Below, piece by piece: positions 44,068 through 64,000 of a stretch of 64,000 bases of DNA. Numbering within the stretch: the stretch's first letter is position 1; each line of letters begins with the position of its first letter. This stretch comes from an uncultured Alphaproteobacteria bacterium (GTDB lineage: Bacteria; Pseudomonadota; Alphaproteobacteria; HIMB59; GCA-002718135): the NCBI GenBank assembly GCA_902560725.1, contig CACEMR010000002.1, forward strand, positions 287 through 64,286, written 5' to 3'. The position numbers were made by a program, and so were the translations under genes. Under the pieces are notes generated by a model. The model was not told the DNA's origin and did no database searches. It worked only from the letters and a program-made list of their open reading frames with translations.

Positions 44068-44361
44068 ATGTTAGTTAAATTAACACAAGATTTAAAAAAT
44101 GGTTTTGGGCCTTGGAAAGAAATGCTTCTTGCAAATGGTCATAAACTTCAAGAACATGGAATGACTTGTATATTTGCAGCAACAGAAAAGGACAATGATA
44201 ATAAATTAACAGTTATTATTGACTTCGCTACACCAGAGGGCATGATGGGTTTCAAAAATGATGAAGAATTAACACAAAGAAGAATTGAGGCTGGTGCTAT
44301 GGTGGAAACTACAGTAATGACACCAATGACTGCTGAAGCAGTTACTAATTTTTCAGGTTAA
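44068..44361 (+). CDS. Small hypothetical protein (possibly DUF3764-like)
   Basis: 97 aa with AGGAG RBS; family assignment is tentative. Confidence 0.6.
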   Translation: MLVKLTQDLKNGFGPWKEMLLANGHKLQEHGMTCIFAATEKDNDNKLTVIIDFATPEGMMGFKNDEELTQRRIEAGAMVETTVMTPMTAEAVTNFSG

Positions 44362-44378
44362 TTAAGAAAGGAAAAAAT

Positions 44379-44699
44379 ATGAGTTTAATGGAAAGATATC
44401 AAAAAGCTATGAAAGATAAAAACGAAGCAGAGATGAATGATATATTGCATGATGATTTTAAGTTTACAATGCATTCATCTGGAAATGTTTTATCAAAATC
44501 TGATGTAGTTAGTTGGGCTATGACTGACGACATTAATTCAGACAAAGACAGAACTATATATGAGAACGATGAAATAGCTGTTCATCACTCCTTCGTTACT
44601 TTTAACGATGGCAATACTCAAGCAGTAATGTCTGTTTTCAAAATAGAAGCTGGTAAAATTGTTTCTTTAGAAACTGGTGCCACTAATATGCCAAAATAA
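44379..44699 (+). CDS. NTF2/SnoaL-like protein
   Basis: LHDDF, RTIYENDEIAVHHS, C-terminal GKIVSLETGAT. Confidence 0.7.
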   Translation: MSLMERYQKAMKDKNEAEMNDILHDDFKFTMHSSGNVLSKSDVVSWAMTDDINSDKDRTIYENDEIAVHHSFVTFNDGNTQAVMSVFKIEAGKIVSLETGATNMPK

Positions 44700-44701
44700 A
44701 A

Positions 44702-45145
44702 ATGAGATTTTTACTATTTGTCTTTTTATTTTTGATAGCTGCAACTCAACTTTTTGCAAAAACTGTTGAAGTTGAGATGTGGACTAACTTTAATGGTGAA
44801 AAAAAAAACCAACGATATGAACCATTAATTGTATCGATTGATGAGGGGGATACTGTAATTTGGAAATCTGTTGAAAAAAGTCATAATGTAGAATTTATGA
44901 CTGGTGGCGTCCCAGAAGGCGTTGGAGAATTTAAATCTAAAATTAGTCAAGATGCCGAATATACATTTACTATTCCAGGAATATATGCATATATTTGTTC
45001 ACCCCATAAGACAGGGAAAATGTTAGGTTTTGTAATTGTTGGTAACGATAAAAGTAATTTAGATGATATTAAAGCTTTGAAATATAGAGGCATGTCCAAA
45101 AAATTTGCAAAGCAGCTTATTGAAGATATTGAGAATAATTATTAG
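44702..45145 (+). CDS. Pseudoazurin/plastocyanin-like blue copper protein
   Basis: Signal peptide, GDTVIW, HNVEF, PGIYAYICSPHKTGKMLG (type 1 Cu ligands H, C, H, M). Confidence 0.88.
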   Translation: MRFLLFVFLFLIAATQLFAKTVEVEMWTNFNGEKKNQRYEPLIVSIDEGDTVIWKSVEKSHNVEFMTGGVPEGVGEFKSKISQDAEYTFTIPGIYAYICSPHKTGKMLGFVIVGNDKSNLDDIKALKYRGMSKKFAKQLIEDIENNY

Positions 45146-45148
45146 AGT

Positions 45149-45169
45149 AGAGCGGGCTAAACCCGCTCT
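45149..45169. terminator. Hairpin terminator between convergent cupredoxin gene and katG
   Basis: AGAGCGGG-CTAAA-CCCGCTCT, perfect 8-bp GC-rich stem. Confidence 0.75.
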
Positions 45170-45180
45170 TAAAATTTAAT

Positions 45181-47328
<2,148 letters not shown>

Positions 47329-47375
47329 TTATTTATAATTAATATATAAAGAAATTAAATTAAAGCAAAGTGAAA

Positions 47376-47783
47376 TTATAACTCAATTTTAAATTTTTCT
47401 GGTTTCCACGTCGCAGGTGCAAGCTCAAAATCTTCAAAATCAAAAGCTGGCGCCACAGTGCATCCAATTAAACTAAAAGAACCTGAAGATTTCATCGCAA
47501 ACCATGTGTTAGATTTAACAGTATAAATATAGTTATTATTAGACCCTAAAGAAAAAACCTCATATCCAATTCCGTCATTTGATGTAAAAACATCTAGAGG
47601 ATCCCCTAAATAAAAATGTAAAATTTCATTTTTTGATAATCTATGCCAATGTGATTTTTCATTATTTTTTAATAAATAATATATTTGACTAACATTTTTA
47701 TCTTTAAAGATTTCCACATAATGACCACCCTCTGGGTGATTAATCATTTTTAATTTTTTAATTAAAGTATCTGCGTCTTGCAC
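47376..47783 (-). CDS. Cupin_5 (DUF985) family protein
   Basis: HPEGGHY, IYYLL, SHWHRL, GCTVAPAFDFEDFEL. Confidence 0.9.
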   Translation of the reverse strand: MQDADTLIKKLKMINHPEGGHYVEIFKDKNVSQIYYLLKNNEKSHWHRLSKNEILHFYLGDPLDVFTSNDGIGYEVFSLGSNNNYIYTVKSNTWFAMKSSGSFSLIGCTVAPAFDFEDFELAPATWKPEKFKIEL

Positions 47784-48374
47784 TTAAAGTAAATGACCAA
47801 GTTTGGTAATTTTTGTAGAAATATATTTTTCATTATACTTATTTGTATCAGTTGAAAGAGGAATTCGCTGATTAACTTCTACTCCCATATCTTTTAAAGC
47901 TTTAATTTTTTTTGGATTATTTGTCATTAAATCTAATTTTTTTATTGCTAGGAACTTTATCATTCCAGAAACGGTTTCATAAGTTCGTTCATCTTCTTTA
48001 AAACCAAGTTGATGATTTGCTTCAACAGTATCCAGTCCTTTGTCTTGTAAGCTATAAGCCTTAATTTTATTTGATAGACCAATTCCTCTTCCTTCTTGTT
48101 GAAGATAAAACACAACACCTCTTCCAATATTTGCAATTTGCTGAAGAGATTCGGTTAATTGATATCTACAATCACAGCGCATACTAAAAAAAGACTCACC
48201 AGTTATACATTGGGAATGTATTCTCGATAAAACTGGTTCGTTTGTTAATAAATCGCCCATACATATAGCTAAATGATCCTTTGATTCTTTTTGATCTGTA
48301 AATGCATGAACAGTAAATTCACCGATGTCAGTTGGAAGTTTACTTGTTTCAATAAATTTTAACTCATTATTCAT
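47784..48374 (-). CDS. ribA: GTP cyclohydrolase II (stand-alone)
   Basis: RIHSQCITG, RCDC Zn ligands, QEGRGIGL, KAY, DTVEAN, DER, TNNPKK, KLGHLL. Confidence 0.95.
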   Translation of the reverse strand: MNNELKFIETSKLPTDIGEFTVHAFTDQKESKDHLAICMGDLLTNEPVLSRIHSQCITGESFFSMRCDCRYQLTESLQQIANIGRGVVFYLQQEGRGIGLSNKIKAYSLQDKGLDTVEANHQLGFKEDERTYETVSGMIKFLAIKKLDLMTNNPKKIKALKDMGVEVNQRIPLSTDTNKYNEKYISTKITKLGHLL

Positions 48375-48414
48375 TAAAGTAGACCTTTATTCTTTTATTA
48401 TTTTTTGTAAATAA

Positions 48415-48888
48415 TTATAATTTTGTTGGATTTGGCGTATCTCCATAAACTTTATCTGGATCAAAAACCTTTTCTTTTTCTTCAAATTTTAGAATGATTT
48501 TAGAATTATTATTATCCAATGGAATACTTCTATAAAAGCAAGATCTATAACCAACATGGCAGCTAGCACCACCTTGTACATCAACTCTTAGCCAAACACA
48601 GTCTTGATCATCATCAATTCTTATTTCTTTTATTTTTTGAATAAGGCCACTAGTTTTACCTTTATGCCAGAGTGATTTTCTACTTCGAGAAAAGTAAACA
48701 GCCTCTCCTAAACTAATTGTTTTTTTAAAAGCTTCTTCATTCATATATCCTTGCATTAATACTTCACCTGAAGAAAAGTCAGTTGTTACGACAGGAATAA
48801 GACCATTTGCATCAAACTTTGGTGCGAGCTCATCTGACTCTTCAACTTGTTCAATTGACTTCCTTTTTTCAAATTCTATATTACTCAT
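48415..48888 (-). CDS. hisI: Phosphoribosyl-AMP cyclohydrolase
   Basis: [43 protein letters not shown]. Confidence 0.96.
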
Positions 48889-49882
48889 TTTTCAGTTTTT
48901 CGGCTATTTCTAATGCAAAGTAAGTAAGTATACCATTTGCACCTGCTCTTTTAAAAGATAAAAGAGACTCCTTAATTACTTTTTCGTTTAACCAACCTTT
49001 ATTAATTGACTCTTTGATCATAGAGTACTCCCCAGACACTTGATAAGCAAAAGTTGGAACTTTAAACTCTGATTTTATTTTAGAAATTATATCCAGATAA
49101 GGCATACCGGGTTTTACCATAACCATGTCAGCTCCCTCATTAATATCAAAAGCTACTTCTCTCAGTGCTTCATCACTATTTGAAGGATCCATTTGATAAG
49201 TTAATTTACCATCTTTACCCAAATTTGAACCTGAGCCTATAGCATCTCTAAATGGTCCATAAAAACCAGAAGCGTATTTAGCAGCATATGACAAAATAAG
49301 TGTATCTTGAAAATTATTATTATCTAAGCATTTTCTAATTCTTCCTACGCGTCCATCCATCATATCAGAAGGTGCAATTACATCACAACCAGCATTTACT
49401 TGAACTAAAGCCTGCTTTTCTAATATTTCTAGAGTCTTATCATTATCAATTTTATTATCTATTAATAACCCATCGTGTCCATGATCAGTAAATGGATCAA
49501 GAGCAACATCACAAATAATTCCAATTTCAGAAAATTCTTTTTTTATACTTTTGATAGATCTGCAAACTAAATTATTTTCATCAATTGCTAAGCTTCCTTG
49601 TGCATTTTTTAACCCAGTATCTATTTGTGGAAATATAGCGATCGCAGGAATTGATAGTCTAACCGCATCTTCAACTCTATGTAAAAGTTTATCAATAGAA
49701 TATCTATTAACACCTGGCATTGATTGAATAGGATCTTCAACATTATCACCCTCACACACAAACAAAGGTAGTATTAAATCACTAGAACCAAGATTATTTT
49801 CAGCAACTAGCCTACGTGAAAACTCTCTCATTCTATTACGTCTAAGTCTTGTGCTTGGAAACTTGCCTTGAATGTTAGTCAT
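48881..49882 (-). CDS. hemB: Porphobilinogen synthase
   Basis: [20 protein letters not shown] (Asp-rich, Zn-independent type), [20 protein letters not shown]. Confidence 0.97.
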
Positions 49883-49885
49883 AAT

Positions 49886-51811
49886 TTATTCTATAGGTGA
49901 TTTTGTTTCTTTGGATAAGGTAGTAACAATTTCATCTAATTTAAAGGTTTTTGTTTCTGATGATCCAATTCTTCTAACTGAAGTTGTTTTTTCTTGAGAC
50001 TCTTTTTTTCCAACAGCGATTATTATAGGGACCTTGCTATTGCTATGTTCTCGAATTTTATAGCCTATTTTTTCATTTCTTAAATCTACATCAGCCCTAA
50101 TACCATTTTTGATCAATTCATTTTTAACGTTAATGGCATAATCATCAGTATCAGAAGTAATTGTCGCCACCATTACTTGTAATGGTGAAAGCCAAAGAGG
50201 CAGATGACCAGCGTAATGTTCAATAAGTATCCCTGTGAATCTTTCTAGAGAACCAAAGAGTGCTCTATGAAGCATAACTGGTGTTTTTTTATTCCCATCT
50301 TCTCCAACATAAGTTGCGCCTAGTCTCCCTGGTAAGTTTAAATCTACTTGTAATGTTCCACATTGCCAATCTCTTCCAATTGCATCCCTTAAAACAAACT
50401 CTAATTTTGGACCGTAAAACGCTCCTTCCCCTGGGTTAAGCGTGTACTCGAGACCTGTTGCTTCCATGGCCTGCATTAATGCAGCCTCAGCCTTATCCCA
50501 AACAGCATCATCCCCTACTCGTTTTTCTGGTCTGTCAGAAAACTTAATTCTGACATTATCAAAACCAAAATCTTTATAAATACTTAGTATCAAGTCACAT
50601 ACAGTTTTACTCTCTTGAGTTATTTGATCTTCTGTGCAAAATATATGCGCATCATCTTGTGTGAATGCTCTTACTCGCATTAATCCGTGAAGGGCTCCTG
50701 AAGGTTCATAACGATGTACTTTTCCAAATTCAGATAATAAAAATGGAAGGTCTCTATAACTTTTTAGACCTTGTTTAAAAATTTCTACAGCACCAGGGCA
50801 GTTCATTGGTTTGATTGCATAAATTTTGTCATCCTTTGCTTCAGTCCTAAACATCATGTCACTAAACTTATCCCAGTGACCAGAGGTTTCCCATAGAGAC
50901 TTATCCATCATGTCTGGTGTATTAGTTTCTACATAACCTGCCTTATCTTGTCTGTTTCGCATATAATTTATTAAAGATTGGAACAACGTCCAACCTTTAG
51001 GGTGCCAAAAAACAGCTCCTGGAGCCTCCTCTTGAAAATGAAATAGATCCATTTCTTTTCCAAGTTTACGGTGATCTCTTTTTTCTGCTTCTTCAATTTG
51101 TAATAGATGTTGTTCAAGATCTTTCTCAGTCGCCCATGCCGTACCATAAATTCTTGTAAGCATTGCATTAGACGAGTCTCCTCTCCAATATGCACCAGCA
51201 ACTTTCATTAATTTAAATGCCTTACCAATCTGCTTCGTTGAAACCATATGTGGACCTCGGCATAAGTCCAACCAACCACCTTGTTTGTAAATACTAATTT
51301 CCTCATTATCAGATAAATCATTTATTAATTCAACCTTGTAGTTTTCACCCTTATCTTTAAAATATTTTATCGCTTCATCTTTAGACCATACTTCCCTGAC
51401 AAAACTTTCATTACGCTGAATAATTTCATGCATTTTTTTTTCAATTTTTGGAAGATCAGATAAAGTAAATGGTTCGTTTCTTGCAAAATCGTAATAGAAA
51501 CCATTTTCTATAGCTGGGCCAATCGTAACTTGTGTACCAGGAAACAATTCTTGAACTGCTTCAGCCATCACATGCGCACAATCATGTCGAATTAGTTCAA
51601 GAGCTTCTTCACTATCTTTTTTTAAAATTGCAACTGATACGTCAGTATTAATAGGTAAGCTAATGTCCTTTATTTCATCGTTTATTTTTACAGCAACTGA
51701 CTCTTTAGCAAGTGATTTAGAAATCTGTGAAGCTAGGTCTAATCCACTAATTCCCTTATCTACTTCTTTTTTGTTTCCATCAGGAAATGTAATTGTAATT
51801 TTTTCACTCAT
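49886..51811 (-). CDS. thrS: Threonyl-tRNA synthetase
   Basis: [42 protein letters not shown]. Confidence 0.98.
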
Positions 51812-53190
51812 CTAGATTTTCGCCAAATTGTTCCCTTATCAGTATCCTCTATTTCTATACCTTTTTCTCTCAATGTATCTCTTATAGTATCTGCCAAACT
51901 AAAATTTTTACTGCGTCTAGCTTCATTACGCTCATTTATCAACCTTTCAATTTCTTCACTATTATCACCACTATTTTGATTATATCCAAGCCAATTTTCT
52001 GGCTCATTTTCTAATATCCCTAAAATTTTTCCAGTTGATAAAAGATTTTTTTTAATATCAACCCTTTTACTATCAGAAGCTGATGAGACACTATTAGCTT
52101 CTTCATTAAGTTTAGCAATTACTTTTGGAGTATTTAAGTCGTCTAAAAAGGTCTCCATTATAGAATTAGAAGGCAAATCAGGATCTATATTTATGTCAGA
52201 TAATTCCAAAAGAACTCTATATAAACGATCAAGCATTTTACTATTCTGTTCAATGATTTCTTCCGTCCAGTTTAGTGGTTGTTTATAATGTGCAGATAGT
52301 AATGTTAAACGTAAAACTTCACCTTTATATTTTTTATTAAGTTCATGAACTAATCGAATGTTGCCAATGGATTTTGACATTTTTTCACCCTCAACATTAA
52401 CAAAACCATTGTGAAACCAGTAAGCAGCAAAATCTTTAGGATCTTTATTTCTTGATATAGAACAAGTTTGTGCAATTTCATTTTCATGATGAGGAAATAC
52501 TAAATCAATACCTCCACTGTGAATATCAAATGGCAAACCTAGTGATTTTTCTGACATCACAGAACACTCTAGATGCCAACCCGGTCTACCAAACCCCCAA
52601 GGTGATTTCCAACCAGGAAGTGGCGATGGTGATGGTTTCCATAATACAAAATCAGCCGGATCTTTTTTAAAAGGAGCAACTTCAACCCGGCTCCCAGCTA
52701 TTTGTTCGTCTCTATTTCTTTTAGATAAAACTCCATATTGTTCAAAACTTGGCACATGAAACAATACATGACCATCTTTTTCATAGGCTTTATTTTCATT
52801 AATTAATTTTTGGATTAACTCAATCATTTCTTTTATATGATCAGTTGCCCTTGGTTGAATATCTGGAAGATTGACTCCTAAGGCTCCCATGTCGTTATTA
52901 TAAATCTCAGTATATTTGGAAGTAATGACATTAATGTCTTCGCCTGTTTCTTTCGAAGCTTCTATAATTTTATCATCAATATCAGTTATGTTTGAAACAT
53001 AAGTAACTTTTTTAAATTGTGTTTTTAAAACACGAACTAATAAATCATTAACAACTGCCATTCGAGCATTGCCAATATGAGCAAAATTATAAACAGTTGG
53101 ACCACATGCATAAATTCTTACATGTGAAGGATCAACAGGTTTAAAAATTTCTTTTTTTCCACTTAATGTGTTTTGTATTTGTAATGCCAT
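51808..53190 (-). CDS. cysS: Cysteinyl-tRNA synthetase
   Basis: [32 protein letters not shown]. Confidence 0.98.
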
Positions 53191-53206
53191 TTATCTAATA
53201 TTTTAT

Positions 53207-53629
53207 TTAATAATTTAGTTCTATTATCACGGGTTCGCCATGAACTAAATCTATTGCAGCTTTTTTAAACGAAGGAGGGCCTTTTGGTTCATAATTATTA
53301 CTAAAAGCAAAGCCCTCTTTTGGTCTCCAGAATAAGCCAGTTTTAAGTTTTCCATCTGAGTCTTCATCATGGTAGGCAACAATTGCTATTTTTCCCTCAT
53401 GAATTTTACTTAAAGGAACTACAACTTCGCCTTTTTGAGCCCTTTTTCTTACACTTTCTATTGCCAAATCTTCATTTAAAAAACTATCCTTAGAGTCATA
53501 TATTTTAACATCTATAAAACCATCTCCATGCTCAACATTTGGGAAAATTATAGTCCCGTGAGCGTAAAGGCAAGATGACCATGTGACGGATAAGCAAAAA
53601 AAGATTATTTTAGTAAAAATGCTTTTCAT
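53207..53629 (-). CDS. DUF2141 family secreted protein
   Basis: Signal peptide, AYHDEDSDGKL, PKEGFAFSNN, GPPSF. Confidence 0.85.
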   Translation of the reverse strand: MKSIFTKIIFFCLSVTWSSCLYAHGTIIFPNVEHGDGFIDVKIYDSKDSFLNEDLAIESVRKRAQKGEVVVPLSKIHEGKIAIVAYHDEDSDGKLKTGLFWRPKEGFAFSNNYEPKGPPSFKKAAIDLVHGEPVIIELNY

Positions 53630-53657
53630 ATAAGTATCATAATTATAATAGAATCAA

Positions 53658-54863
53658 GTGCTGAACAACAACGAATATTTAAATAGATTATATCAATCTG
53701 ATAAACCTCTCATTATTTACAAAAATGATAAAGGTTTTGACGTATATACGGATTTTTCTAAAAAATTTTTAATTAATAAAAAAAATATAAAAAACTTTCT
53801 TAACTCGCAAACTAAGAAAAAACAGTCAAATTCAAAAAATTTAAATTGCTATATAGGTTTCTTTGGATACAAACTGTTATGTGAAAATATAGGTATAAAA
53901 TTACCTAAACAAAAAACTAATAATTTTTACACTGGTCTTTTTTATCAACCATTAACTAAAATTAGTATTAGAAAAAAAATTTCAATACAAAGTATAAAAC
54001 CAAATTTCAGAAATATAAAAATAAACAAAAAAAATTATGAATTATTAGATAAGAAATTTAACCTTAATTTAACGTTACAACAGTATTCTAAATTATTTAA
54101 AAATTTTTCTAAAAATATAAAACAAGGAAAAACCTATCAAATAAAAATTGCTCAAAATTATTCAAAAAAAGGGACAATAAACGCTATAGATCTATTTTGG
54201 AAATTAATGAGAATGAATGAGTCACCAGAAAGTTTTTTAATAAGAGATAAAAATTTTAATATAATTAGTTGTTCACCTGAAACACTTATCTTGAAAAAAA
54301 ATAATTTAATAAAAACTAAACCTATTGCGGGTACTCTTCGGAAAACAAAAAATACAAATCAAAAAAAAGCCCTAACTTTTTTTAGAAAAAATGAAAAAGA
54401 AACAAAAGAACATAATATGATTGTTGATATGGAAAGAAATGATCTTGCTAAAATATGTAAAACTGGTTCAGTAAAAATAGAAAAATTAAAAAAAGTAGAA
54501 GAATATAGAGATCTATTTCATTATGTTACAACCATTAAGGGTCTATTAAAAAATAAAATAACTAATCATGAAATAATTTCTTCATTGATGCCTGGAGGTT
54601 CTGTTATTGGTTGTCCTAAAATTAGTACAATTCAACTTTTAAATAAAAAAGAAAAATATGATCGCAATATTTATACTGGAAGTTTTGGCATAATACATGC
54701 CAATGGTGATATGCGTTTTAATATCATGATACGAACACTCCTTAACTTTAAAAATAAAATTGATTTATCTGTAGCCAGTGGAGTTATTTTAGGTAGTACC
54801 GCAAAAAAAGAATACAATGAAAATTATATAAAAGCCAAATCTCTTTTGGAGCTATTTAACTAA
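53658..54863 (+). CDS. pabB: Aminodeoxychorismate synthase component I
   Basis: Chorismate-binding domain SPE, KPIAGT, EHNMIVDMERNDL, PGGSVIGCPK, YTG; heads a pab/fol cluster. Confidence 0.85.
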   Translation: MLNNNEYLNRLYQSDKPLIIYKNDKGFDVYTDFSKKFLINKKNIKNFLNSQTKKKQSNSKNLNCYIGFFGYKLLCENIGIKLPKQKTNNFYTGLFYQPLTKISIRKKISIQSIKPNFRNIKINKKNYELLDKKFNLNLTLQQYSKLFKNFSKNIKQGKTYQIKIAQNYSKKGTINAIDLFWKLMRMNESPESFLIRDKNFNIISCSPETLILKKNNLIKTKPIAGTLRKTKNTNQKKALTFFRKNEKETKEHNMIVDMERNDLAKICKTGSVKIEKLKKVEEYRDLFHYVTTIKGLLKNKITNHEIISSLMPGGSVIGCPKISTIQLLNKKEKYDRNIYTGSFGIIHANGDMRFNIMIRTLLNFKNKIDLSVASGVILGSTAKKEYNENYIKAKSLLELFN

Positions 54864-55420
54864 TGATTTATCTCATCGATCACGAAGATTCATTTACATA
54901 TAATCTTGCGCATTTATTAGATGATATTGAGCCAACTTTTGTATCCAATTACTATGAAATTAATAAGGAAAAATTAGAAAAATCTTCAACTATTGTTCTC
55001 TCTCCAGGTCCTGGAGAGCCTAAGAACTATCCTCAAACAACAAAGATTTATAAACAATATAAAGCCAAGAAAAAAATACTTGGTATATGTTTAGGTTTCC
55101 AACAAATAGTTTTTTCAGAGGGAGCAAAAATAGTTCAACAAAAGAATATACTACATGGATATCAAAGTCTTATTAAAATAGTAAATAACAAATCAATTTT
55201 TAAAAAAAATTCAGAATTTCTGGGTGGAAGATATCACTCATTAAAAATGGCAGAACCGTTTCTTTCCAAATCTATGTCTATTACCATGCGCTGTAAAAAA
55301 ACAAATGTAGCAATGGCTGTTGAAGATGATATTAACAAAGTCTATGGATTTCAATTTCACCCAGACTCTTTTTTAACCCCAAATGGAAAATACCTTATTA
55401 AAAAAGTCATTTCGCGTTAA
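54863..55420 (+). CDS. pabA: Aminodeoxychorismate synthase glutaminase component II
   Basis: IDHEDSFTYNL, LSPGPG, GICLGFQ, RYHSL, QFHPD. Confidence 0.85.
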   Translation: MIYLIDHEDSFTYNLAHLLDDIEPTFVSNYYEINKEKLEKSSTIVLSPGPGEPKNYPQTTKIYKQYKAKKKILGICLGFQQIVFSEGAKIVQQKNILHGYQSLIKIVNNKSIFKKNSEFLGGRYHSLKMAEPFLSKSMSITMRCKKTNVAMAVEDDINKVYGFQFHPDSFLTPNGKYLIKKVISR

Positions 55421-56138
55421 AGATTTAAGGACAATTACTTTTAATTCTCTTTGGGGATACAAAGGTATATTTACAACTATAAGATTAATAGGAAATAAAC
55501 CAAATTTAATTTTAGTTGAAGAACACTTAAAAAAACTTAACAAAGATATACGATATTTTGGTATAAACTTTAAAATATCAAAACAATTTCTAATTAAATT
55601 TATTAAAAATAATTCTAAAATTAAAAGTTATGACCATCTATTACGTGTAGCAATTACAAAAAAAATTTTATCTTTATCTTTACGTAAAAGAATTAAAGAA
55701 GATAAATTTTTTACAGCCCAAATTTATCGTTATCAAAGAGTCTTGCCTGCTTTTAAAAACTTACAATATAAAAAAATAATTTCTTTACAAAAAAGTATTA
55801 ATTTAAAAAAAGAAGAAATTATTTTTTATAAAAGAAATAGAATTCTTGAAGGATCAACAACAAATATAATCTGTATTCGAAATAATAAACTATTTATTCC
55901 CAAGAATTCATATTACTTTGGAGTTACAATTTCCTATTTGCTAAAAAAATTACCTTATAAAATTCAAAAAACAGATATTATTATTTCTAATCTAAGTAAA
56001 TTTGATGAAATACTTTTAGTTGGTTCAGGTAAAGGTGTCGTTAGTATTTCTTCCATTAAAAAATTAAATTGGTATAGGTCTTCTATGAAGATCTATAATT
56101 ATTTATCTCGAAAATACTCTAAACTTTTAATAAAATGA
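55383..56138 (+). CDS. pabC: Class IV aminotransferase-fold protein, probable aminodeoxychorismate lyase
   Basis: GIFTTIR, HLKKL, FKNLQY (PLP Lys), LEGSTTN, GVT, DEILLVGS; located between pabA and folP. Confidence 0.75.
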   Translation: MENTLLKKSFRVKDLRTITFNSLWGYKGIFTTIRLIGNKPNLILVEEHLKKLNKDIRYFGINFKISKQFLIKFIKNNSKIKSYDHLLRVAITKKILSLSLRKRIKEDKFFTAQIYRYQRVLPAFKNLQYKKIISLQKSINLKKEEIIFYKRNRILEGSTTNIICIRNNKLFIPKNSYYFGVTISYLLKKLPYKIQKTDIIISNLSKFDEILLVGSGKGVVSISSIKKLNWYRSSMKIYNYLSRKYSKLLIK

Positions 56139-56953
56139 AATTAGGAAAGTATAATTTCAAACTTAATAGTCCTGTAGTGATGGGAATATGCAACGTGACA
56201 CCTGACTCCTTTAGTGATGGTGGTCAAAGCTTTAAGAAAAAAGATGCTTTAAATAACATTAATACAATGTTTAAAAATGGAGCCCAAATAATAGATATTG
56301 GTGCTGAAAGTGCTAGACCAGGATCTGATCCATTAAGCTATAAAGAAGAAATTAAAAGATTAGATCCAATATTAAAAAAATTACCAAAAAATAAATTTGC
56401 GATCTCCGTCGACTCATACAAAATTGAAACTCAAGAATATGCGCTAAATAATGGTGCACATATAATCAATGATATATTTGGAGGCTCGCAAGACCTATTT
56501 TATTTAACAAAAAAATTCAAAACAGGATTAATTTTAATGCATACACCAGCGCCGCCTAAGACAATGCAAACAATGGTAGATTCTTATAGTAATGTTGTTT
56601 CTGACATAAAAATAATTTTTAAAAAAACAATTAAGAAATTAGAGAAAGCTAAAATACCAGCTTCAAAAGTATGGTTTGATCCAGGAATTGGTTTTGGTAA
56701 AAACCTCGAACAAAATATTGAAATTATGCAGAAAATAAATCAGTTTAAGTTTAAGAGTTATGGACTTTTGTTGGGTTCTTCAAGAAAAAGCTGGATTGAT
56801 AAAATTGATAAAAGCGATGCAAATGAGAGAATAGGCGGTTCTATAACTTCAGCATTATATTGTTATCAAAAAGGAGTTGATATATTTAGAGTGCATGACG
56901 TAAAGGAAACTTACCAGTCCTTAAAAGTATTTGAGAAATTATGTTTAAAGTAG
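56135..56953 (+). CDS. folP: Dihydropteroate synthase
   Basis: NVTPDSFSDGG, DIGAESARPG, DPGIGFGK, SRKS, RVHDV. Confidence 0.96.
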   Translation: MKLGKYNFKLNSPVVMGICNVTPDSFSDGGQSFKKKDALNNINTMFKNGAQIIDIGAESARPGSDPLSYKEEIKRLDPILKKLPKNKFAISVDSYKIETQEYALNNGAHIINDIFGGSQDLFYLTKKFKTGLILMHTPAPPKTMQTMVDSYSNVVSDIKIIFKKTIKKLEKAKIPASKVWFDPGIGFGKNLEQNIEIMQKINQFKFKSYGLLLGSSRKSWIDKIDKSDANERIGGSITSALYCYQKGVDIFRVHDVKETYQSLKVFEKLCLK

Positions 56954-57285
56954 AAATTAAAAATTTATCTATAAATGCTAACATAGGAATTACCGCTAAA
57001 GAGAGAGCAAAAAAACAAGTTTTAAAAGTTACATTATCATTTTATTATTCTTTGAAGCACTCTATTAATTTAAATGATATTGAAAATGTTAAAGATTATT
57101 CTTCTATAACCAAATATTTAAAGGAATTAGTACAAAATTCTAATTCACATACTTTAGAGCATTTAATAATAAACGTATCAAAAGCTCTAGAAAAAAAATT
57201 TAAAATTAAAGATGTAAAAGTCAGTATAAATAAAACAGCTGTAGCAAAAAGATATGGAGCTGAGTCAGTAAGTGTATCAAACTGA
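56941..57285 (+). CDS. folB: Dihydroneopterin aldolase
   Basis: IGITAKER..KQ, DY, TLE, terminal VSV; located between folP and folK. Confidence 0.85.
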   Translation: MFKVEIKNLSINANIGITAKERAKKQVLKVTLSFYYSLKHSINLNDIENVKDYSSITKYLKELVQNSNSHTLEHLIINVSKALEKKFKIKDVKVSINKTAVAKRYGAESVSVSN

Positions 57286-57772
57286 TAGTGTTATTGCTTT
57301 AGGCTCAAACTTAGGTAATTCTATTTATAATCTAGGCTGTGCTATAAAAGAATTAAGAAAATTTGGTTATATATCAAAAATAGCTGATGTTTATATTTCC
57401 GAACCATATGGGTATAAATATCAAGATAATTTTTATAACACAGCTGTTCTTTTAAAAACTAACAAACAACCATTAGAGTTAATTAATATAATTTCTCAAA
57501 TAGAAAAAAAGTTAAAAAAAAATAAAAGAATAATTAATGGTCCACGAAATATTGATATTGATATAATTTTTTATGGAAAAAATAAATATTTTTTCAGTAA
57601 TTTGATTATTCCTCACCCAAGAGCAAAAGACAGAGATTTTGTTTTATTACCAATATTAGATATTAATCCATTTATTCAACATCCCACTGAAAAAAAATCT
57701 ATTAAAACTCTATCAGCAAAATTACAAAAAAAATATATTATTAAAAAATTATCCTACAGAAATTTGATTTAA
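57272..57772 (+). CDS. folK: 6-hydroxymethyl-7,8-dihydropterin pyrophosphokinase
   Basis: IALGSNLG, FYNTAV, GPRNIDIDII, IPHPR, RDFVLLP. Confidence 0.94.
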   Translation: MYQTDSVIALGSNLGNSIYNLGCAIKELRKFGYISKIADVYISEPYGYKYQDNFYNTAVLLKTNKQPLELINIISQIEKKLKKNKRIINGPRNIDIDIIFYGKNKYFFSNLIIPHPRAKDRDFVLLPILDINPFIQHPTEKKSIKTLSAKLQKKYIIKKLSYRNLI

Positions 57773-58399
57773 GAAATTTTTTAATTTTGTTTTTGATATA
57801 AAGTTTTTATTATTTTTTAAGCTTCTAGAAATATCTAATCCATAAGGTCTTATTTGTTTGATAATAGTTGAAACGTTTGTCCTATTTATTCCGCCACCAA
57901 TATAAATAGGAATATTTTTATCTTTAATAAATTGAATTTGTTTTAAGCTTTTGTTAAGTGAATATTTCTTTATGCTTTTTTTCTTGTATACATTCATATC
58001 AAAATAAATCACATCAATAATACTTTTAATTGATTCAATATATTTTTTATTAAAATTTTCAGGATTAATTGAAATACCTATTCTTAATCTTTTAAATATT
58101 TTTTTAATTTTAATAAGAGCATCTTTTGAAAAGTGGAAAGAACAGGAAATCGTTTTTGGTTTTGTAAAATCAATTTGCTTTATTATTTCATCTAAAGAGT
58201 AAAATTTTGTCAAAAGAACTGACTCAATATTATAATAATTACATTCCTTAATTAATTTTTTAATATTTGTATCATTTGTTGTATTAGGTCCATTAAGATT
58301 ATTGCTAGCAAATCCAAGACTTTTAACTTTATTTTCATAGGCCCTTAAAACAGATGCTTTGTTTGTTATTCCGCAAATTTTCAAATTGATTTTACTCAT
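57749..58399 (-). CDS. Divergent phosphoribosylanthranilate isomerase (TrpF)-like protein
   Basis: LKICGIT (catalytic Cys), LGF, YFD, IGGGINRTNV, PYGLDIS; no trp genes nearby; overlaps the 3' end of folK. Confidence 0.75.
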   Translation of the reverse strand: MSKINLKICGITNKASVLRAYENKVKSLGFASNNLNGPNTTNDTNIKKLIKECNYYNIESVLLTKFYSLDEIIKQIDFTKPKTISCSFHFSKDALIKIKKIFKRLRIGISINPENFNKKYIESIKSIIDVIYFDMNVYKKKSIKKYSLNKSLKQIQFIKDKNIPIYIGGGINRTNVSTIIKQIRPYGLDISRSLKNNKNFISKTKLKNFLNQISVG

Positions 58400-58450
58400 A
58401 GTATTAATTAGATTAAATAATATTAATCTAAATAAAAGTAAATATTCATT

Positions 58451-58852
58451 ATGATATCTGAAAATTTTGATAATTTATTTAAAGCAGCTTCTTCAGTGAG
58501 AGAACAAGCTCATGTTCCATATTCTAATTTTAAAGTAGGTGCGGCTTTTCTTACAGAAGATAATACAATTATTACTGGTTGTAATGTTGAAAACGCTGCT
58601 TATCCTCAATCTCAATGTGCAGAAGCAACCGCAATTGGAAATATGATTTCTAATGGAAATAAAAAAATATTGGAAATAGTTGTCATTGGGTCAGGAGATT
58701 TACTATGTTCCCCTTGTGGTGGATGTAGACAAAGAATAAGAGAGTTTGCATCATTAGATACGAAAATTCATATGTGTAATGAAAATGGTCATATGAAAAC
58801 ATCAACACTTGAAGAGTTATTGCCAGACTCTTTTGGTCCTGAAAATCTATAA
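58451..58852 (+). CDS. cdd: Cytidine deaminase (homotetrameric type)
   Basis: PYSNFKVGAA, GCNVENAAY, CAE, PCGGCRQ. Confidence 0.95.
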   Translation: MISENFDNLFKAASSVREQAHVPYSNFKVGAAFLTEDNTIITGCNVENAAYPQSQCAEATAIGNMISNGNKKILEIVVIGSGDLLCSPCGGCRQRIREFASLDTKIHMCNENGHMKTSTLEELLPDSFGPENL

Positions 58853-59682
58853 TGCTCTCTTCATCAAAAAAATTTTTAGAGTTAACAAATGATAATTCGC
58901 CTGATGTAGCTGTCATACTTGGAAGCGGTTTAACAAATTTCTTTAATGAACAAGATATTATTAAATCAATTTCATACGAAGAACTTGAAGATTTTCCTCA
59001 ACCAACTGTTAAAGGACATGCAGGTAAATTAGTTTTAGGGAAAATTGATAATTTGAAAGTAGTTTGCATGTATGGAAGATCACATATTTATGAAGGTCAT
59101 AATCCGCAAAGTCTTGCTGCACCTATTCGAGTTTTAAAAGATATTGGCAGTAAGCTTCTTATTGTTACTAATGCTGCTGGAAGTCTTGATGAAAAAATGC
59201 CTGCTGGAAGTCTAATGGCAATTAAGGATCACATAAATTGGAGTGGCTTCAACCCCCTTATTGGAGATAATGCTGAAGAATATGGCCCTCGTTTTCATGA
59301 TATGAGTGATGGCTATCATAAATTTTACCGTGATCAATTAATTGATGTGGCCAAAAAAAATAATCAAAAAATATATGAAGGTATTTATTGCATGTATTCA
59401 GGGCCAAACTTTGAAACACCAGCTGAAATTAATGCTTTAAAAGTTATTGGAGGTAATGCTGTTGGAATGTCAACTGTGCCAGAAGTTTTAGTAGCAAATC
59501 ATTGCAGCCTTCCTGTTATTGGTATTAGTGTCATCACTAATTTAGCTGCTGGGATGAATAAAACAAAATTAAGTCATCAAGAAACTTTAGAAAATGCAAG
59601 CTTAGCAGAGAACAATGTACTAAATTTAATTAAACAGTTTATACGCGAAGTTCAATTAGATGATACCTCAAGAAATAATTAG
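58852..59682 (+). CDS. punA: Purine nucleoside phosphorylase (trimeric, PunA/XapA type)
   Basis: ILGSGL, GHAG, GRSHIYEG, TNAAG, GPNFETPAE, VGMSTVPE, ITNLAAG. Confidence 0.92.
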   Translation: MLSSSKKFLELTNDNSPDVAVILGSGLTNFFNEQDIIKSISYEELEDFPQPTVKGHAGKLVLGKIDNLKVVCMYGRSHIYEGHNPQSLAAPIRVLKDIGSKLLIVTNAAGSLDEKMPAGSLMAIKDHINWSGFNPLIGDNAEEYGPRFHDMSDGYHKFYRDQLIDVAKKNNQKIYEGIYCMYSGPNFETPAEINALKVIGGNAVGMSTVPEVLVANHCSLPVIGISVITNLAAGMNKTKLSHQETLENASLAENNVLNLIKQFIREVQLDDTSRNN

Positions 59683-60973
59683 AAAAAAAAGAGATAGCGA
59701 AGTTCTTTCAAAAGAAGAAATTATTGAATTTGTAAAAGGTTTAACCAATGGATCTTTTTCAGACGCTCAGATTGCTGCGATGAGTATGGCAATATTTTCT
59801 AACGGCATGATACCTGAAGAGACTGTTCACTTAACTGAAGCAATGACAAAATCTGGGGATACAATAAATTGGTCAGACATTGTAGATAGTGAATTTGTGT
59901 GTGATAAACATTCAACAGGTGGCGTTGGTGATAAAACCAGTATTGTATTGGCACCAATATTAGCAGCATGTGGATTACATGTGCCGATGATTTCTGGAAG
60001 AGGTCTAGGTCATACCGGTGGAACACTTGACAAATTTGATTCAATACCAGGATACAATACCCAACCTGATATAGATACTTTTAAAAAAGTAGTAAAAGAA
60101 GTTGGATGTGCAATTATTGGTCAAACGTCAAATCTAGCGCCAGCTGATAAAAAACTATATTCAATAAGAGATGTAGTGGGAACAGTTGAGTCTTTACCTT
60201 TAATTACCTCTTCTATTTTATCAAAAAAAATCGCCTCTGGTCTTAAATCTTTAGTTCTAGATGTAAAAGTTGGTAACGGTTCCTTTAATAGTAACATTGA
60301 TATATCAAGAGCACTCTCTAATTCTTTAGTAAGTGTAGCAAAGGGAGCAGGGCTTAAATGTGAAGCTATAATAACTGATATGAATCAAGTATTAGGTAAA
60401 AGCGCCGGTCATACTTTAGAAATGTTAGAATGTATAAATTATATAAAAAATGAATCAAAAGACTCTCGACTTGAAAATATTACAAATGAATTAATCTCTT
60501 CACTTCTTATGATGATCTATAAAATTTCAAAAGAAGAAGCTCACAAAAAAATTCATGAAGTAATAACAAATGGTTTCGCCGCCGAAAAATTTGAAATGAT
60601 GGTTGCAGCTCTCGGAGGACCAAAAAATATTCTCTCATCTTATGAAAAAGATTTAAGCAACAATTCATCTCCAAAAGATATATTTGGACAAAACTCAGGT
60701 TGGGTTAAAAAAATTCATACAAGAGAATTAGGACTGACTTTGATAGAACTTGGTGGCGGAAGAAAACAAGTTACTGATAAAATTAATTATGGGGTAGGTT
60801 ATGATAATGTCTGTTCTGTTGGCGATAAAATTGATTCATCAAGACCTTTACTAACTCTTTACTCTAACAATATGGAAGATAATAAAAAATTAGAGGATCG
60901 AATTAAAGATTGTTTTGTCATATCAGATAAAGAAATAACAAAATTACCTGAAATATATGAACACATTAATTAA
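59660..60973 (+). CDS. deoA: Thymidine phosphorylase
   Basis: MIPQEIIRKKRD, DKHSTGGVGDK, SGRGLGHTGGTLDK, SILSKK, LGGGR. Confidence 0.96.
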   Translation: MIPQEIIRKKRDSEVLSKEEIIEFVKGLTNGSFSDAQIAAMSMAIFSNGMIPEETVHLTEAMTKSGDTINWSDIVDSEFVCDKHSTGGVGDKTSIVLAPILAACGLHVPMISGRGLGHTGGTLDKFDSIPGYNTQPDIDTFKKVVKEVGCAIIGQTSNLAPADKKLYSIRDVVGTVESLPLITSSILSKKIASGLKSLVLDVKVGNGSFNSNIDISRALSNSLVSVAKGAGLKCEAIITDMNQVLGKSAGHTLEMLECINYIKNESKDSRLENITNELISSLLMMIYKISKEEAHKKIHEVITNGFAAEKFEMMVAALGGPKNILSSYEKDLSNNSSPKDIFGQNSGWVKKIHTRELGLTLIELGGGRKQVTDKINYGVGYDNVCSVGDKIDSSRPLLTLYSNNMEDNKKLEDRIKDCFVISDKEITKLPEIYEHIN

Positions 60974-61629
60974 TGAGTACTCAAACTGAAATTAATAAAA
61001 ACTTAGTTCAATACCTCCAAAAAGTTGGATACCGAGATGATAAAATAATTAACGATTTGGCTCATGAAACATCAAAATTAGGCAGTGTTTCACAAATGCA
61101 AATTGCAAAAGAACAAGGGCAGTTTCTTGAAATTATTACAAAAATATCTAACGCAAATTCTTGTTTAGAAATTGGTAGATTTACAGGAATGAGTACACTT
61201 TTTATAGCAAGGGGTCTTTCTGAAAAAGGTAAAATTATCACAATTGATAATTCTGATGAGTTTCTATCTTTAGCAAAAAAATATTGGGATCTCGATAATG
61301 TAAGTGCAAAAATAGAGTCAATTATTGGTGACGGTGTTGAAGTAATGCAGAGCATGATAGACCGCCAACATTCTTTTGATTTAATTTTTATTGATGCTGA
61401 TAAAAACAATTACCCTAATTACTATGAACTATCTCTTAATTTAATACCATCAAATGGAATTATCATTATTGATAATATGCTTTGGCATGGTGATGTCGCT
61501 AATGAAAATAAAAATGATTCTCAAACAAATACCATACGTGATTTAAATTTGAAAATTCAAAAAGATAATAGGGTTGAGTTCTCTCTTTTGCCCCTTTCAG
61601 ATGGTTTATCTTTTATAAGAAAAAAATAA
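60973..61629 (+). CDS. Class I SAM-dependent O-methyltransferase (caffeoyl-CoA OMT-like)
   Basis: MQI..EQGQFL, LEIGRFTGMS, FIDADK, IDNMLWHG, DGL. Confidence 0.9.
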   Translation: MSTQTEINKNLVQYLQKVGYRDDKIINDLAHETSKLGSVSQMQIAKEQGQFLEIITKISNANSCLEIGRFTGMSTLFIARGLSEKGKIITIDNSDEFLSLAKKYWDLDNVSAKIESIIGDGVEVMQSMIDRQHSFDLIFIDADKNNYPNYYELSLNLIPSNGIIIIDNMLWHGDVANENKNDSQTNTIRDLNLKIQKDNRVEFSLLPLSDGLSFIRKK

Positions 61630-61636
61630 TTAAAGA

Positions 61637-61666
61637 CTTGAATTAACAATAATCATCACCACATTT
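61637..61666 (+). promoter_or_regulatory. RpoH (sigma32)-type promoter for hsp20
   Basis: CTTG-N17-ACCACATTT, same spacing as the dnaK and hslV promoters. Confidence 0.6.
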
Positions 61667-61669
61667 AAG

Positions 61670-61729
61670 TTATCGGTATGCCATTGTGGGTGCTGATAAA
61701 CAAACTTGCTTATTAAAGGAGTTATTATG
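61670..61729 (+). ncRNA. ROSE-like RNA thermometer in the hsp20 5' UTR
   Basis: 5' hairpin TTATCGGTA/TGCTGATAA; 3' hairpin AACTTGCT (61703-61710) pairs with the SD AGGAGTT (61717-61723) with the bulged G of the U(U/C)GCU motif. Confidence 0.75.
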
Positions 61730-62164
61730 ACTAGAAACCTATCCGTTTGGAATTCTCTAAGACCCTTTTCTGTTGGATTTGACTCGATTTTCGATGAATT
61801 TGATAGAATGTTAGAGTCCACTGAACGATACAATACAAACTACCCACCTTACAATATTCATAGAGTTGATGAAAATAACTACAAAATTGAAGTAGCTCTT
61901 GCTGGATATAGTAAAGAGGATATTGAGATTGAATTAAAAGAAAGTAACTTAACCGTTCGAAATAAACCAAAAGAAAAAGTGGTTAATGAAAATGGTAATG
62001 GTGTTATTCATAAAGGTATCTCAACTCGACAGTTTGAAAGATCATTCACAATTTCAGAAGACATCAAAGTGAAAGATGCGGAACTGCAAAATGGACTATT
62101 AACAATAGATTTGGAGAGAATCATTCCAGAAGAAAAAAAAGCTAGACTAATATCAATTAAATAG
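61727..62164 (+). CDS. Small heat shock protein (Hsp20/IbpA family)
   Basis: SVGFD, NYPPYNI, IEVALAG, HKGISTRQFERSF, NGLLTIDL, IPEEKK; ATG 61727 follows AGGAG. Confidence 0.95.
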   Translation: MTRNLSVWNSLRPFSVGFDSIFDEFDRMLESTERYNTNYPPYNIHRVDENNYKIEVALAGYSKEDIEIELKESNLTVRNKPKEKVVNENGNGVIHKGISTRQFERSFTISEDIKVKDAELQNGLLTIDLERIIPEEKKARLISIK

Positions 62165-62173
62165 TCGTGGATA

Positions 62174-62191
62174 GGGGCCCAAAGTGGCCCC
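62174..62191 (+). terminator. Putative terminator hairpin after hsp20
   Basis: GGGGCC-CAAAGT-GGCCCC; U-tract is weak. Confidence 0.55.
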
Positions 62192-62239
62192 AAACTTTAC
62201 AAATATTGAAAAATCTAAATTTAATTTTTATAAGTCATT

Positions 62240-62914
62240 ATGAAAATTATTATTTTTCTTTTAGTATTTTATCCCTTAACAATCTTTGCCCATCAACCTA
62301 AATTAATAAATTATTCACCATCTTTCGATAATCCACATGAGGTAGTTTACCCAGAAATTTCAAAAGCATATTATTCTAAGTTAGAAGGAGAGCCGCATTA
62401 TTATAAAATAAATAGTGATAGTGATTTTTTATTTTATACAGGTATCTTAAGTCCAAAAGTAAATGATAATTACAAATGGTTATCCCTTGAAGTTTTAGAT
62501 GAAAATAAAAAAGTCATTTATAAAGCAGAGGGTAAAGACTTTGAGTGGAATGCTTGGTATGAACCTTATGCTAGAGATTGGTATTGGAAAGGCCCTGAAA
62601 TAGGAACTGAAAGAAATGAAGAATTTAAAACAAGTTTTACAATTGATGCTGGCACCTATTATATAAAAGTATTTAACGACGATAACACAGGACATTATTC
62701 ACTCGCAGTTGGTGAAGCAGAATTTTTTGGATCCAATCTATGGGAACAAATATTAACTTGGACGCCTATCATTCTTTATATTGGCCCATTCATGGATATT
62801 ATACATTGGCAAAAATTTGATATTCGCGCCTACATTCCTCATATTGCTCTTTTAGTTTTAATAACAATTATTTATTTCTTAATAAAAAAAATATTTTTTA
62901 GAAGAAGGGTATAG
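62240..62914 (+). CDS. Hypothetical exported protein with C-terminal membrane anchor
   Basis: Signal peptide ending IFA then HQP, aromatic-rich soluble domain, C-terminal TM followed by KK/RRR. Confidence 0.75.
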   Translation: MKIIIFLLVFYPLTIFAHQPKLINYSPSFDNPHEVVYPEISKAYYSKLEGEPHYYKINSDSDFLFYTGILSPKVNDNYKWLSLEVLDENKKVIYKAEGKDFEWNAWYEPYARDWYWKGPEIGTERNEEFKTSFTIDAGTYYIKVFNDDNTGHYSLAVGEAEFFGSNLWEQILTWTPIILYIGPFMDIIHWQKFDIRAYIPHIALLVLITIIYFLIKKIFFRRRV

Positions 62915-62922
62915 GGTTAAAA

Positions 62923-63510
62923 ATGATGCTAAGATATTTCTTATTCATAAGCATACTTTTAATTATTAAACCTCTTTACGCTCATACCTTTACTGGAATG
63001 AATGGTTTTTATGATGGTCTTTCACATCCTGTTTTAGGATTAGATCATTTTTTAGCAATGGTTTGTGTTGGAGTGGTTAGTTCACAAATTGGCGGTAGAG
63101 CCATTTGGACAGTTCCCTCTTTATTTGTCCTATTTATGATTGTAGGGGGAGCAGCAGGCTTATTTATAGAGATACTTGCCATTACACTCTCTGATATGAT
63201 TGAATGGGGCATAATTTTTTCAGTAATTTTTTTAGGTCTATCCGTTGCAATAGAAAAAAAATTACCAACAAATATTATAATGATAGCTGTTGCATTTTTT
63301 GGCTCTTTCCATGGACTAGCTCATGGCATTGAAATGCCTTGGGCTGCAAACCCATTATTATTTGCTTTGGGGTTTTCATCAGGTACAGCAGCTCTCCACC
63401 TTTTTGGTGTAGGCATAGGCTTAGCACTAATTAAAAATAATTTTTTGAATATAATATTGAGAGCACTCGGCCTTGGATGTGCAATATTTGGATTCTATTT
63501 AATAATATAA
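62923..63510 (+). CDS. HupE/UreJ family Ni/Co transporter
   Basis: Signal peptide then AH, GLSHPVLGLDHFLAM, FHGLAHGIE, LHLFG. Confidence 0.92.
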   Translation: MMLRYFLFISILLIIKPLYAHTFTGMNGFYDGLSHPVLGLDHFLAMVCVGVVSSQIGGRAIWTVPSLFVLFMIVGGAAGLFIEILAITLSDMIEWGIIFSVIFLGLSVAIEKKLPTNIIMIAVAFFGSFHGLAHGIEMPWAANPLLFALGFSSGTAALHLFGVGIGLALIKNNFLNIILRALGLGCAIFGFYLII

Positions 63511-63520
63511 ATTTCTTTTA

Positions 63521-63537
63521 ATTAGAATAGTTCTAAA
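63521..63537. promoter_or_regulatory. Irr/ICE-like iron control element 1
   Basis: ATTAGAA-TAG-TTCTAAA versus ICE consensus TTTAGAA-N3-TTCTAAA (1 mismatch). Confidence 0.55.
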
Positions 63538-63626
63538 TTAAGTTTATTCTTAATGTTTTATATAATTTTTTTTTTATATAATTTAAATTTTTTTTATAAT
63601 GTAAATAAAAGTTTACTTCCGTTCCA

Positions 63627-63683
63627 TGGTGGTTAATATGTTTATCATTATACTCACATTTAATCTTAAATTATTAACCACCA
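63627..63683. ncRNA. Candidate small RNA hairpin
   Basis: Perfect 12-bp inverted repeat TGGTGGTTAATA/TATTAACCACCA around a 33-nt loop. Confidence 0.4.
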
Positions 63684-63701
63684 AATCTATAATTTTTTTA
63701 A

Positions 63702-63718
63702 ATTAGAATAACTCTAAA
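63702..63718. promoter_or_regulatory. Irr/ICE-like iron control element 2
   Basis: ATTAGAA-TAA-CTCTAAA (2 mismatches to ICE), upstream of TATAAT at 63745-63750. Confidence 0.45.
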
Positions 63719-63788
63719 TATCCTTATTAATTAGCTTAAATGCTTATAATAAATTTAGAAATTTAATCAGCTCTAAACAAGTATAATA

Positions 63789-63892
63789 AGTTTTTAGATC
63801 CTTAGTAATAGGACGTGGAGATAAGTGTTGAATTATATGGTAAATGCGTATCTTGACTTAAAGGTTTTCATTTATCTCCACATCTAAAAACT
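63789..63892 (+). ncRNA. Candidate cis-regulatory three-way-junction RNA
   Basis: P1 AGTTTTTAGAT/ATCTAAAAACT (11 bp), P2 CTTA-GTAA-TAGG (GNRA loop), P3 GTGGAGATAAGTG/CATTTATCTCCAC (13 bp, one G-U). Confidence 0.55.
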
Positions 63893-63920
63893 AAGAAATT
63901 TTTAAAATTAAGGAATAAAA

Positions 63921-64000
63921 ATGAAAAAAATAATACTAATTGCTTTTTCATTAGTTTTTTCTTTTTCTGTAACAAAAGCTAATGCAGAAGTTTACGGTCC
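63921..64000 (+). CDS. Secreted protein, 5' fragment (runs off window)
   Basis: AAGGA RBS then MKKIILIAFSLVFSFSVTKANA-EVYG, a Sec signal peptide with an A-x-A site. Confidence 0.75.
   Translation, partial: MKKIILIAFSLVFSFSVTKANAEVYG

Follow-up and report, generated by a model that had tools for sequence, protein, structure and literature searches.

FolE (PF01227) and FolE2 (PF02649) make a dihydroneopterin phosphate ester from GTP, the first committed pterin step of folate synthesis. The closest described system without either enzyme is that of Chlamydia trachomatis: according to Adams et al. (2014, mBio, PMC4161248), chlamydial TrpF (TrpF-CtL2) complements an E. coli ΔfolE mutant and, with RibA, makes dihydroneopterin monophosphate (H2NMP) from the RibA product. 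In Chlamydia, a single and fairly ordinary TrpF does both jobs, still complementing trpF mutants and lying in the trp operon in some species, and the host is an intracellular pathogen that uses CT610. An earlier survey (De Crecy-Lagard et al., 2007; PMC1971073) reports folKP without folE or folE2 only for Wolbachia, Chlamydia and Chlamydophila. Here we analyse a 64,000-nucleotide stretch (hereafter the window) from an uncultured marine alphaproteobacterium (GenBank assembly GCA_902560725.1, contig CACEMR010000002.1; GTDB HIMB59; GCA-002718135), in which a divergent TrpF-like gene (57749-58399, minus strand, 216 amino acids) lies beside a cluster of folate genes.

A sequence-only reading of the window had proposed that this gene is a dedicated folate-pathway TrpF paralog which, with RibA, bypasses GTP cyclohydrolase I. 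The absence of folE, the co-occurrence with folate genes and the retention of the residues for an Amadori rearrangement all support the proposal: the gene probably encodes an isomerase of the TrpF fold, strongly remodelled and dedicated to this step, which stands in for GTP cyclohydrolase I by turning the RibA product into dihydroneopterin phosphate. We observe which genes are present, how they are linked and inherited together, the predicted fold, the residues kept and those changed, and the mark of purifying selection; from these we infer the paralog's substrate, its product and its partnership with RibA.

As in the chlamydial system, folE and folE2 are missing, folB, folK, folP and GTP cyclohydrolase II are present, and for the Amadori half of the FolE reaction the sole candidate enzyme has a TrpF fold and carries the catalytic Cys and Asp. 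Unlike in Chlamydia, the candidate is a separate, divergent paralog beside folate genes, a canonical trpF serves tryptophan, and the host is a free-living bacterium with pabABC; the activity here is predicted from genes. By this analysis, the arrangement appears to work like the chlamydial bypass but differs from it in having a specialised, sharply bounded paralog clade fixed to folate genes. The sequence-only reading knew of no such paralog in free-living bacteria, and our literature search of main texts (supplements, possibly with gene tables, lay outside it) likewise found no description of a folate-linked TrpF paralog outside Chlamydia; the word folate is absent from the text of Getz et al. 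(2023; PMC10308909).

The folate pathway and its missing first step

The window belongs to a 1.43-Mb assembly (47 contigs, 90.3% complete) in which neither PF01227 (FolE) nor PF02649 (FolE2/MptA) gave a match anywhere, even at E<=1, so that the lack of folE and folE2 first noted for the cluster extends to the whole genome; PF01242 (PTPS/QueD) had no match in the genome either. On the plus strand, positions 53658-57772 encode pabB-pabA-pabC-folP-folB-folK, tightly packed or overlapping in the open reading frame listing and family scans; folC (357 bits) lies about 3 kb beyond pyrF-trpF-trpB on contig C1, and folA is also encoded in the genome. Since folB, folK, folP, pabABC, folC and folA are present and no folE or folE2 was found, the folate pathway is complete except for the steps from GTP to dihydroneopterin.

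The same gap was found across relatives, most of them represented by incomplete single-cell or metagenome assemblies. Neither folE nor folE2 was detected in a set of 41 relatives (0/41 for each; 24 of the same genus and 16 of the sister family), to which the folE2 search was confined, and folE was detected in none of the order's 51 genomes with a completeness of 85% or more (22 of which reach at least 90%). In an even draw of 301 genomes across the class, the same folE search was positive in 222, a count that takes in the unpublished G291 and includes genomes of 0.9-1.6 Mb, and the method therefore detects folE where it exists.

The second half of the FolE reaction, ribosylamine opening and Amadori rearrangement, is TrpF chemistry. 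In the route that we propose, a GTP cyclohydrolase II would open GTP to 2,5-diamino-6-ribosylamino-4(3H)-pyrimidinone 5'-phosphate, the enzyme being the short or the long RibA in the window's family and the long RibA in the sister family. The Cys of the TrpF-like protein (as general base) and its Asp (as general acid) would then carry out ribosylamine opening and Amadori rearrangement, and the 2'-keto group would close onto the 5-amino group to give 7,8-dihydroneopterin 3'-phosphate. After dephosphorylation, FolB, FolK, FolP (with p-aminobenzoate, PABA, from PabABC), FolC and FolA would complete the pathway. Compared with FolE or FolE2, the same proposed outcome would be reached through an unrelated fold and by two enzymes instead of one, and because the product would be the monophosphate, FolQ would be unneeded and both FolE and FolQ would be bypassed.

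The TrpF-like clade and its pocket

The translation contains all four motifs by which the sequence-only reading had recognised a TrpF fold (KICG, YFD, GGGI and GLDIS), and it passes the threshold of the Pfam family PRAI narrowly (PF00697; 30.5 versus 22.7 bits). Among the clade's three representatives, P0123 falls under that cut-off (19.9 bits) and P0124 gives no match, and all 12 NCBIfam trpF models score the window protein far under their cut-offs (best equivalog 43.4 versus 215 bits). An AlphaFold2 model from 67 sequences (predicted local distance difference test score, pLDDT, 96.2; predicted TM score, pTM, 0.92) folds as a (beta-alpha)8 barrel that carries an additional hairpin (residues 136-145), and its top 10 Foldseek matches in the PDB are all TrpF (TM 0.70-0.77, identity 14-18%); solved TrpF structures include 4aaj, 5lhf, 4wui, 1v5x and 1nsj/1lbm. 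In a profile-to-PDB alignment, the YyD of the paralog (D134) falls on the LLD Asp of P. furiosus TrpF (4aaj) and its GPN lines up with SPR in the Jonesia enzyme.

We compared alignment columns between 17 paralogs and the 50 nearest other PRAI-family representatives. Cys9 on strand 1 and Asp134 on strand 6, which we take from work on T. maritima TrpF to be the acid-base pair, are present in 17/17 paralogs and 49/50 others, and the paralogs also retain the phosphate-site residues GG169-170 and Asp189 (the GG and D-S motifs of strands 7 and 8). The rest of the comparison shows extensive change. The SPR Arg, to which work on T. maritima TrpF assigns a role in anthranilate binding, is Asn39 in all 17 paralogs (Arg in 23/50 others), and Gln85 is replaced by Ser or Cys (Gln in 48/50 others). 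The Gly and Thr positions of the GGTG loop, kept in 37-46 of the 50 others, are retained in none of the paralogs (0/17), which have the Gly-free beta-hairpin (136-145) instead; the H-D/N-W that follows the loop is deleted, Ala168 has become Gly (AGGL to GGGI) and Glu195 has become Lys. Relative to canonical TrpF (PF00697), the paralog therefore has the same (beta-alpha)8 barrel, Cys/Asp pair and phosphate motifs, and it is without the SPR Arg, the GGTG loop and a trp context.

A protein that passes the PRAI threshold, keeps the catalytic Cys and Asp and has solved TrpFs as its nearest structures might be a second, redundant phosphoribosylanthranilate isomerase for tryptophan. We regard this as highly improbable. 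The sequence-only reading had asked for a search for a second trpF beside trpB/trpA, and the same genome indeed encodes a canonical one (C1:193966-194568, PRAI 141 bits) inside pyrF-trpF-trpB (trpB TIGR00263, 637 bits); neither folE nor folE2 was found, and the paralog is not the sole trpF. With an ordinary trpF between pyrF and trpB, tryptophan synthesis has its own enzyme and the paralog is not needed for it. As had been noted before, no trp gene adjoins the paralog in the window's open reading frames and family scans. The wide miss of every NCBIfam equivalog cut-off and the loss of the SPR Arg together with the GGTG loop in 17/17 members also stand against redundancy, as does the distribution of the paralog, which tracks folK and not the trp genes: one genome of the sister family (G025) keeps a canonical trpF match without having the paralog. 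Redundant genes would, moreover, rarely be kept in streamlined 1.4-Mb genomes.

The very low G+C content (0.205) and weak family scores could also suggest that the gene is decaying or has no function and is merely carried along with the folate genes, and in one genome (G070) the copy is apparently split by a stop. Such decay is hardly credible given pairwise ratios of nonsynonymous to synonymous substitution (dN/dS) of 0.04-0.19, which indicate purifying selection, and 52 columns that are invariant between two families only ~33% identical. Frames are intact at 78 of 80 loci, and the fold is predicted with confidence.

The clade is sharply bounded. A search of 1.84 billion representatives yields high scores for just three full-length clusters at 50% identity (335, 286 and 269 bits); the next full-length proteins reach at most 83 bits and are ordinary PRAI-family members. 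A quick IQ-TREE search, with a sampling that leaves chlamydial TrpF aside, unites the 17 paralogs (SH-aLRT 100) above a long stem (2.03 substitutions per site), with the genome's own trpF elsewhere in the tree. The nearest relatives outside the clade (P0159, P0166 and P0168) form a PRAI subgroup that has G-P-G/R in place of SPR, scores 38-77 bits with Pfam and keeps the GGTG loop. Searching for longer forms with the clade profile gave no RibA fusion; a 426-amino-acid form fused to radical-SAM domains on a single 4-kb contig is probably a gene-calling artefact, and the long matches in the search of 1.84 billion representatives are TrpC-TrpF fusions. An ESM Atlas search returned phosphoribosylanthranilate isomerase clusters and nothing new.

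Inheritance with folK and folB

With a profile built from eight paralogs (alignment A2), paralog-type proteins score at least 86 bits and canonical trpF cross-matches at most 67 bits. By this measure, 40 of the 51 order genomes carry a paralog-type match; folK is found in 39, folB in the same 39, and all of these fall within the 40. The additional genome (G051) holds the first 62 residues only, at a contig end, and the other 11 genomes lack the paralog, folK and folB alike. The co-occurrence of this clade with folPBK, which the sequence-only reading had put forward as a check, is complete wherever the region is assembled. Among the 301 class genomes, just two have paralog-type matches (E<=1e-25), both from the window's genus; the sole sister-family genome in that sample is G025, which has no folate module.

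We then collected 80 loci, from public records titled uncultured Alphaproteobacteria single-cell genomes, Pelagibacteraceae or Pelagibacterales single amplified genomes (SAGs) and MarineAlpha5 bins. folK is the convergent neighbour of the paralog in 78 of these, followed by folB-folP-pabC-pabA-pabB, and the remaining two are cut by a contig end. In the window the paralog had been read as overlapping the folK 3' end: the overlap is real and measures 24 nucleotides, as it does in 71 of the 78 loci, but the two genes are convergent, so the overlap joins 3' ends, there is no shared transcript and the paralog is not part of the folate operon.

The linkage extends to the sister family, in which the paralog protein is ~33% identical and its 3' end likewise overlaps folK of a pabBAC-folPBK array. 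There, however, the gene lies 4 nucleotides downstream of katG and is not cdd-flanked. As the far flank is katG in the sister family and cdd in the window's family, folK is the only constant neighbour. In G025, a closed genome without the module, an NMT1/THI5-like binding protein, an ABC ATPase and a permease fill the interval from katG to the binding-protein gene (L102:8330-10929, G025:C1). An ABC transporter thus replaces the module, and the seven genes behave as one replaceable unit.

Three apparent losses within the window's genus (G022, G051 and G056) were set aside as assembly gaps: the adjacent essential gene cysS is missing too, and the G056 contig ends inside thrS. Two further genomes, G058 and G060, lack the module but do encode cysS, among other neighbours; G060 nonetheless has a cdd-type gene.

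These distributions bear on a different assignment, in which the TrpF-fold isomerase acts on some other phosphorylated ribosylamine or sugar phosphate, either in a pterin or PABA side reaction or in nucleoside or ribose salvage, and the FolE step falls to an unknown enzyme or to pterin uptake. The heavily changed pocket, from which homology gives no reading of the substrate, allows for such a role. The neighbourhood offers some further encouragement: on the paralog's other side lies cdd-punA-deoA, divergently oriented across a 51-nucleotide spacer at the paralog's 5' side that is common to both in the window's family. This flank is not conserved in the sister family, however, and the paralog is gained and lost with folK and folB rather than with cdd, as G060 illustrates. 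No other candidate was seen for the FolE step, and if only hydroxymethylpterin were salvaged, FolB would be left without a source of substrate. We therefore judge a different substrate unlikely.

A role in bypassing FolE, in contrast, fits a pathway whose sole hole is FolE (with FolQ), GTP cyclohydrolase II genes in 51/51 genomes, a catalytic pair and phosphate site kept while the pocket was rebuilt, a gene dispensable for tryptophan, and inheritance only with folB and folK. We lean, by a small measure, towards a broader proposal: that these proteins make up an enzyme family of their own, a new and committed diaminoribosylaminopyrimidinone-phosphate isomerase/dihydroneopterin-phosphate synthase whose pocket was rebuilt on the TrpF barrel and which arose independently of the bifunctional chlamydial TrpF; that it is the true first enzyme of the pterin branch in abundant ocean bacteria, one family of which has its own extra short RibA; and that the seven-gene module acts as a self-contained, mobile switch between folate prototrophy and auxotrophy in these streamlined genomes.

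Marine organisms exchange folate as a vitamin. From missing FolK and FolP, a 2026 survey (PMC13408713) predicts that folate auxotrophy is extensive among HIMB59-type, SAR86 and Pelagibacterales plankton. In one such order, 39 of 51 genomes have folK, folB and the isomerase and none has FolE, so completeness rules that demand FolE call them incomplete. If the proposed role is right, gene-content predictions that require FolE misjudge which bacteria of the surface ocean make folate. The route would then be a second, free-living example of RibA-based pterin synthesis, and the protein a TrpF barrel specialised for the FolE-bypass reaction rather than moonlighting in it. As a simple marker, the gene could point out folate producers in groups of bacteria that are very abundant and for the most part uncultured, and it could aid the design of defined media for them.

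GTP cyclohydrolase II genes and the layout of the window

The genome has three GTP cyclohydrolase II genes, two of which exceed the RibA subfamily cut-off. One of these is the stand-alone ribA that the sequence-only reading had paired with the paralog (47784-48374, minus strand, 196 amino acids); it is a genuine RibA (NF001591, 265 versus 148 bits; TIGR00505, 238 versus 205.85 bits), but it is a supernumerary copy that one of the two module-bearing families has and the other lacks. The second is a long RibA of 385 amino acids with an extra N-terminal region (218 bits with the RibA subfamily model), and the third is a ribB-domain protein that adjoins riboflavin synthase, whose cyclohydrolase part reaches 45 bits with that model and whose cyclohydrolase half may be inactive. 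The latter two genes occupy, as a pair, C5:2317-3474 and C14:11932-13038 (L103:1318-2475 and L104:1933-3039 in locus numbering).

The short RibA of ~200 amino acids is confined to the window's family (f1), where it occurs in 23 genomes: 22 with an assembled module and G056, in which it is present even though the contig breaks before the module site. It was not found in the module-less G058 and G060, nor in G022 and G051, in which the module region is unassembled. This correlation reflects few independent events. The gene always lies 8-12 kb from the module, with housekeeping genes between. In one family it may be a dedicated supplier of substrate, although the proposed scheme does not require it. 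A ribA seemingly close to the cluster in one locus (L073, ~3.4 kb from punA-cdd-paralog) was rejected: the contig is exactly 10,000 bases long with pabB split across both ends, which suggests faulty assembly of a single-cell genome and not a real rearrangement.

Several points weigh against assigning the paralog to the FolE step. The sister family has the module without the short ribA, which tells against that RibA as an obligatory partner. The paralog lies on the strand opposite the folate genes and is therefore not co-transcribed with them, and an Rfam scan of 44000-64000 (E<=1) found no THF-type riboswitch or other shared regulatory element. Part of the co-inheritance is what adjacency would give any neighbour in a mobile cassette; the genomes counted are kin and not independent, so that there were fewer evolutionary events than the co-occurrence counts suggest and the module-less genomes may represent few losses. 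In G070 (85% complete), the paralog lies in two overlapping pieces with one internal TAA (C3:43942-44575), which could mean a frameshift, a pseudogene or a mistake in the assembly. The assignment as a whole is a prediction from sequence.

A Cupin_5 (DUF985) gene (47376-47783, minus strand) directly adjoins the short ribA at its stop side, without intervening bases. Members of the sister genus have this gene unlinked, in 15/17 module-bearing and 0/7 module-less genomes. A connection with folate was considered and is unsupported: G058 and G060, which have no module, carry the gene as well, and it occurs in varied contexts.

The folate array itself reads as follows, all on the plus strand. pabB, for aminodeoxychorismate synthase component I (53658-54863), matches PF00425 at 249 bits and has PabB models as its best NCBIfam matches, under their cut-offs. 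It is followed by pabA, the glutamine amidotransferase component (54863-55420; PF00117, 123.5 bits), which falls slightly under the TIGR00566 cut-off (118.5 versus 121.05), and by a pabC-like gene for a class IV aminotransferase-fold protein, the aminodeoxychorismate lyase (55383-56138; PF01063, 77.8 bits), for which NCBIfam pabC models are best, again under their cut-offs. The three pterin genes are assigned with scores above their cut-offs: folP, for dihydropteroate synthase (56135-56953; TIGR01496, 281.4 versus 162.6 bits), folB, for dihydroneopterin aldolase (56941-57285; PF02152, 70.6 bits; TIGR00526, 63.7 versus 45.05 bits), and folK, for HPPK (57272-57772; TIGR01498, 120 versus 54.1 bits), which meets the TrpF-like gene tail to tail.

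In public RNA data, four marine runs share only 0.05-0.10 of the sampled words. A match to the ROSE_3 thermoregulator RNA upstream of the open reading frame at 61706-62164 (61672-61732, plus strand; 27.6 bits versus a gathering score of 43, E 0.043) is probably due to chance. The composition that the TrpF-like gene was said to share with the rest of the island was borne out: G+C is 0.205-0.289 across 53.5-58.5 kb and ~0.30-0.40 on either side, in a window of ~30% overall.

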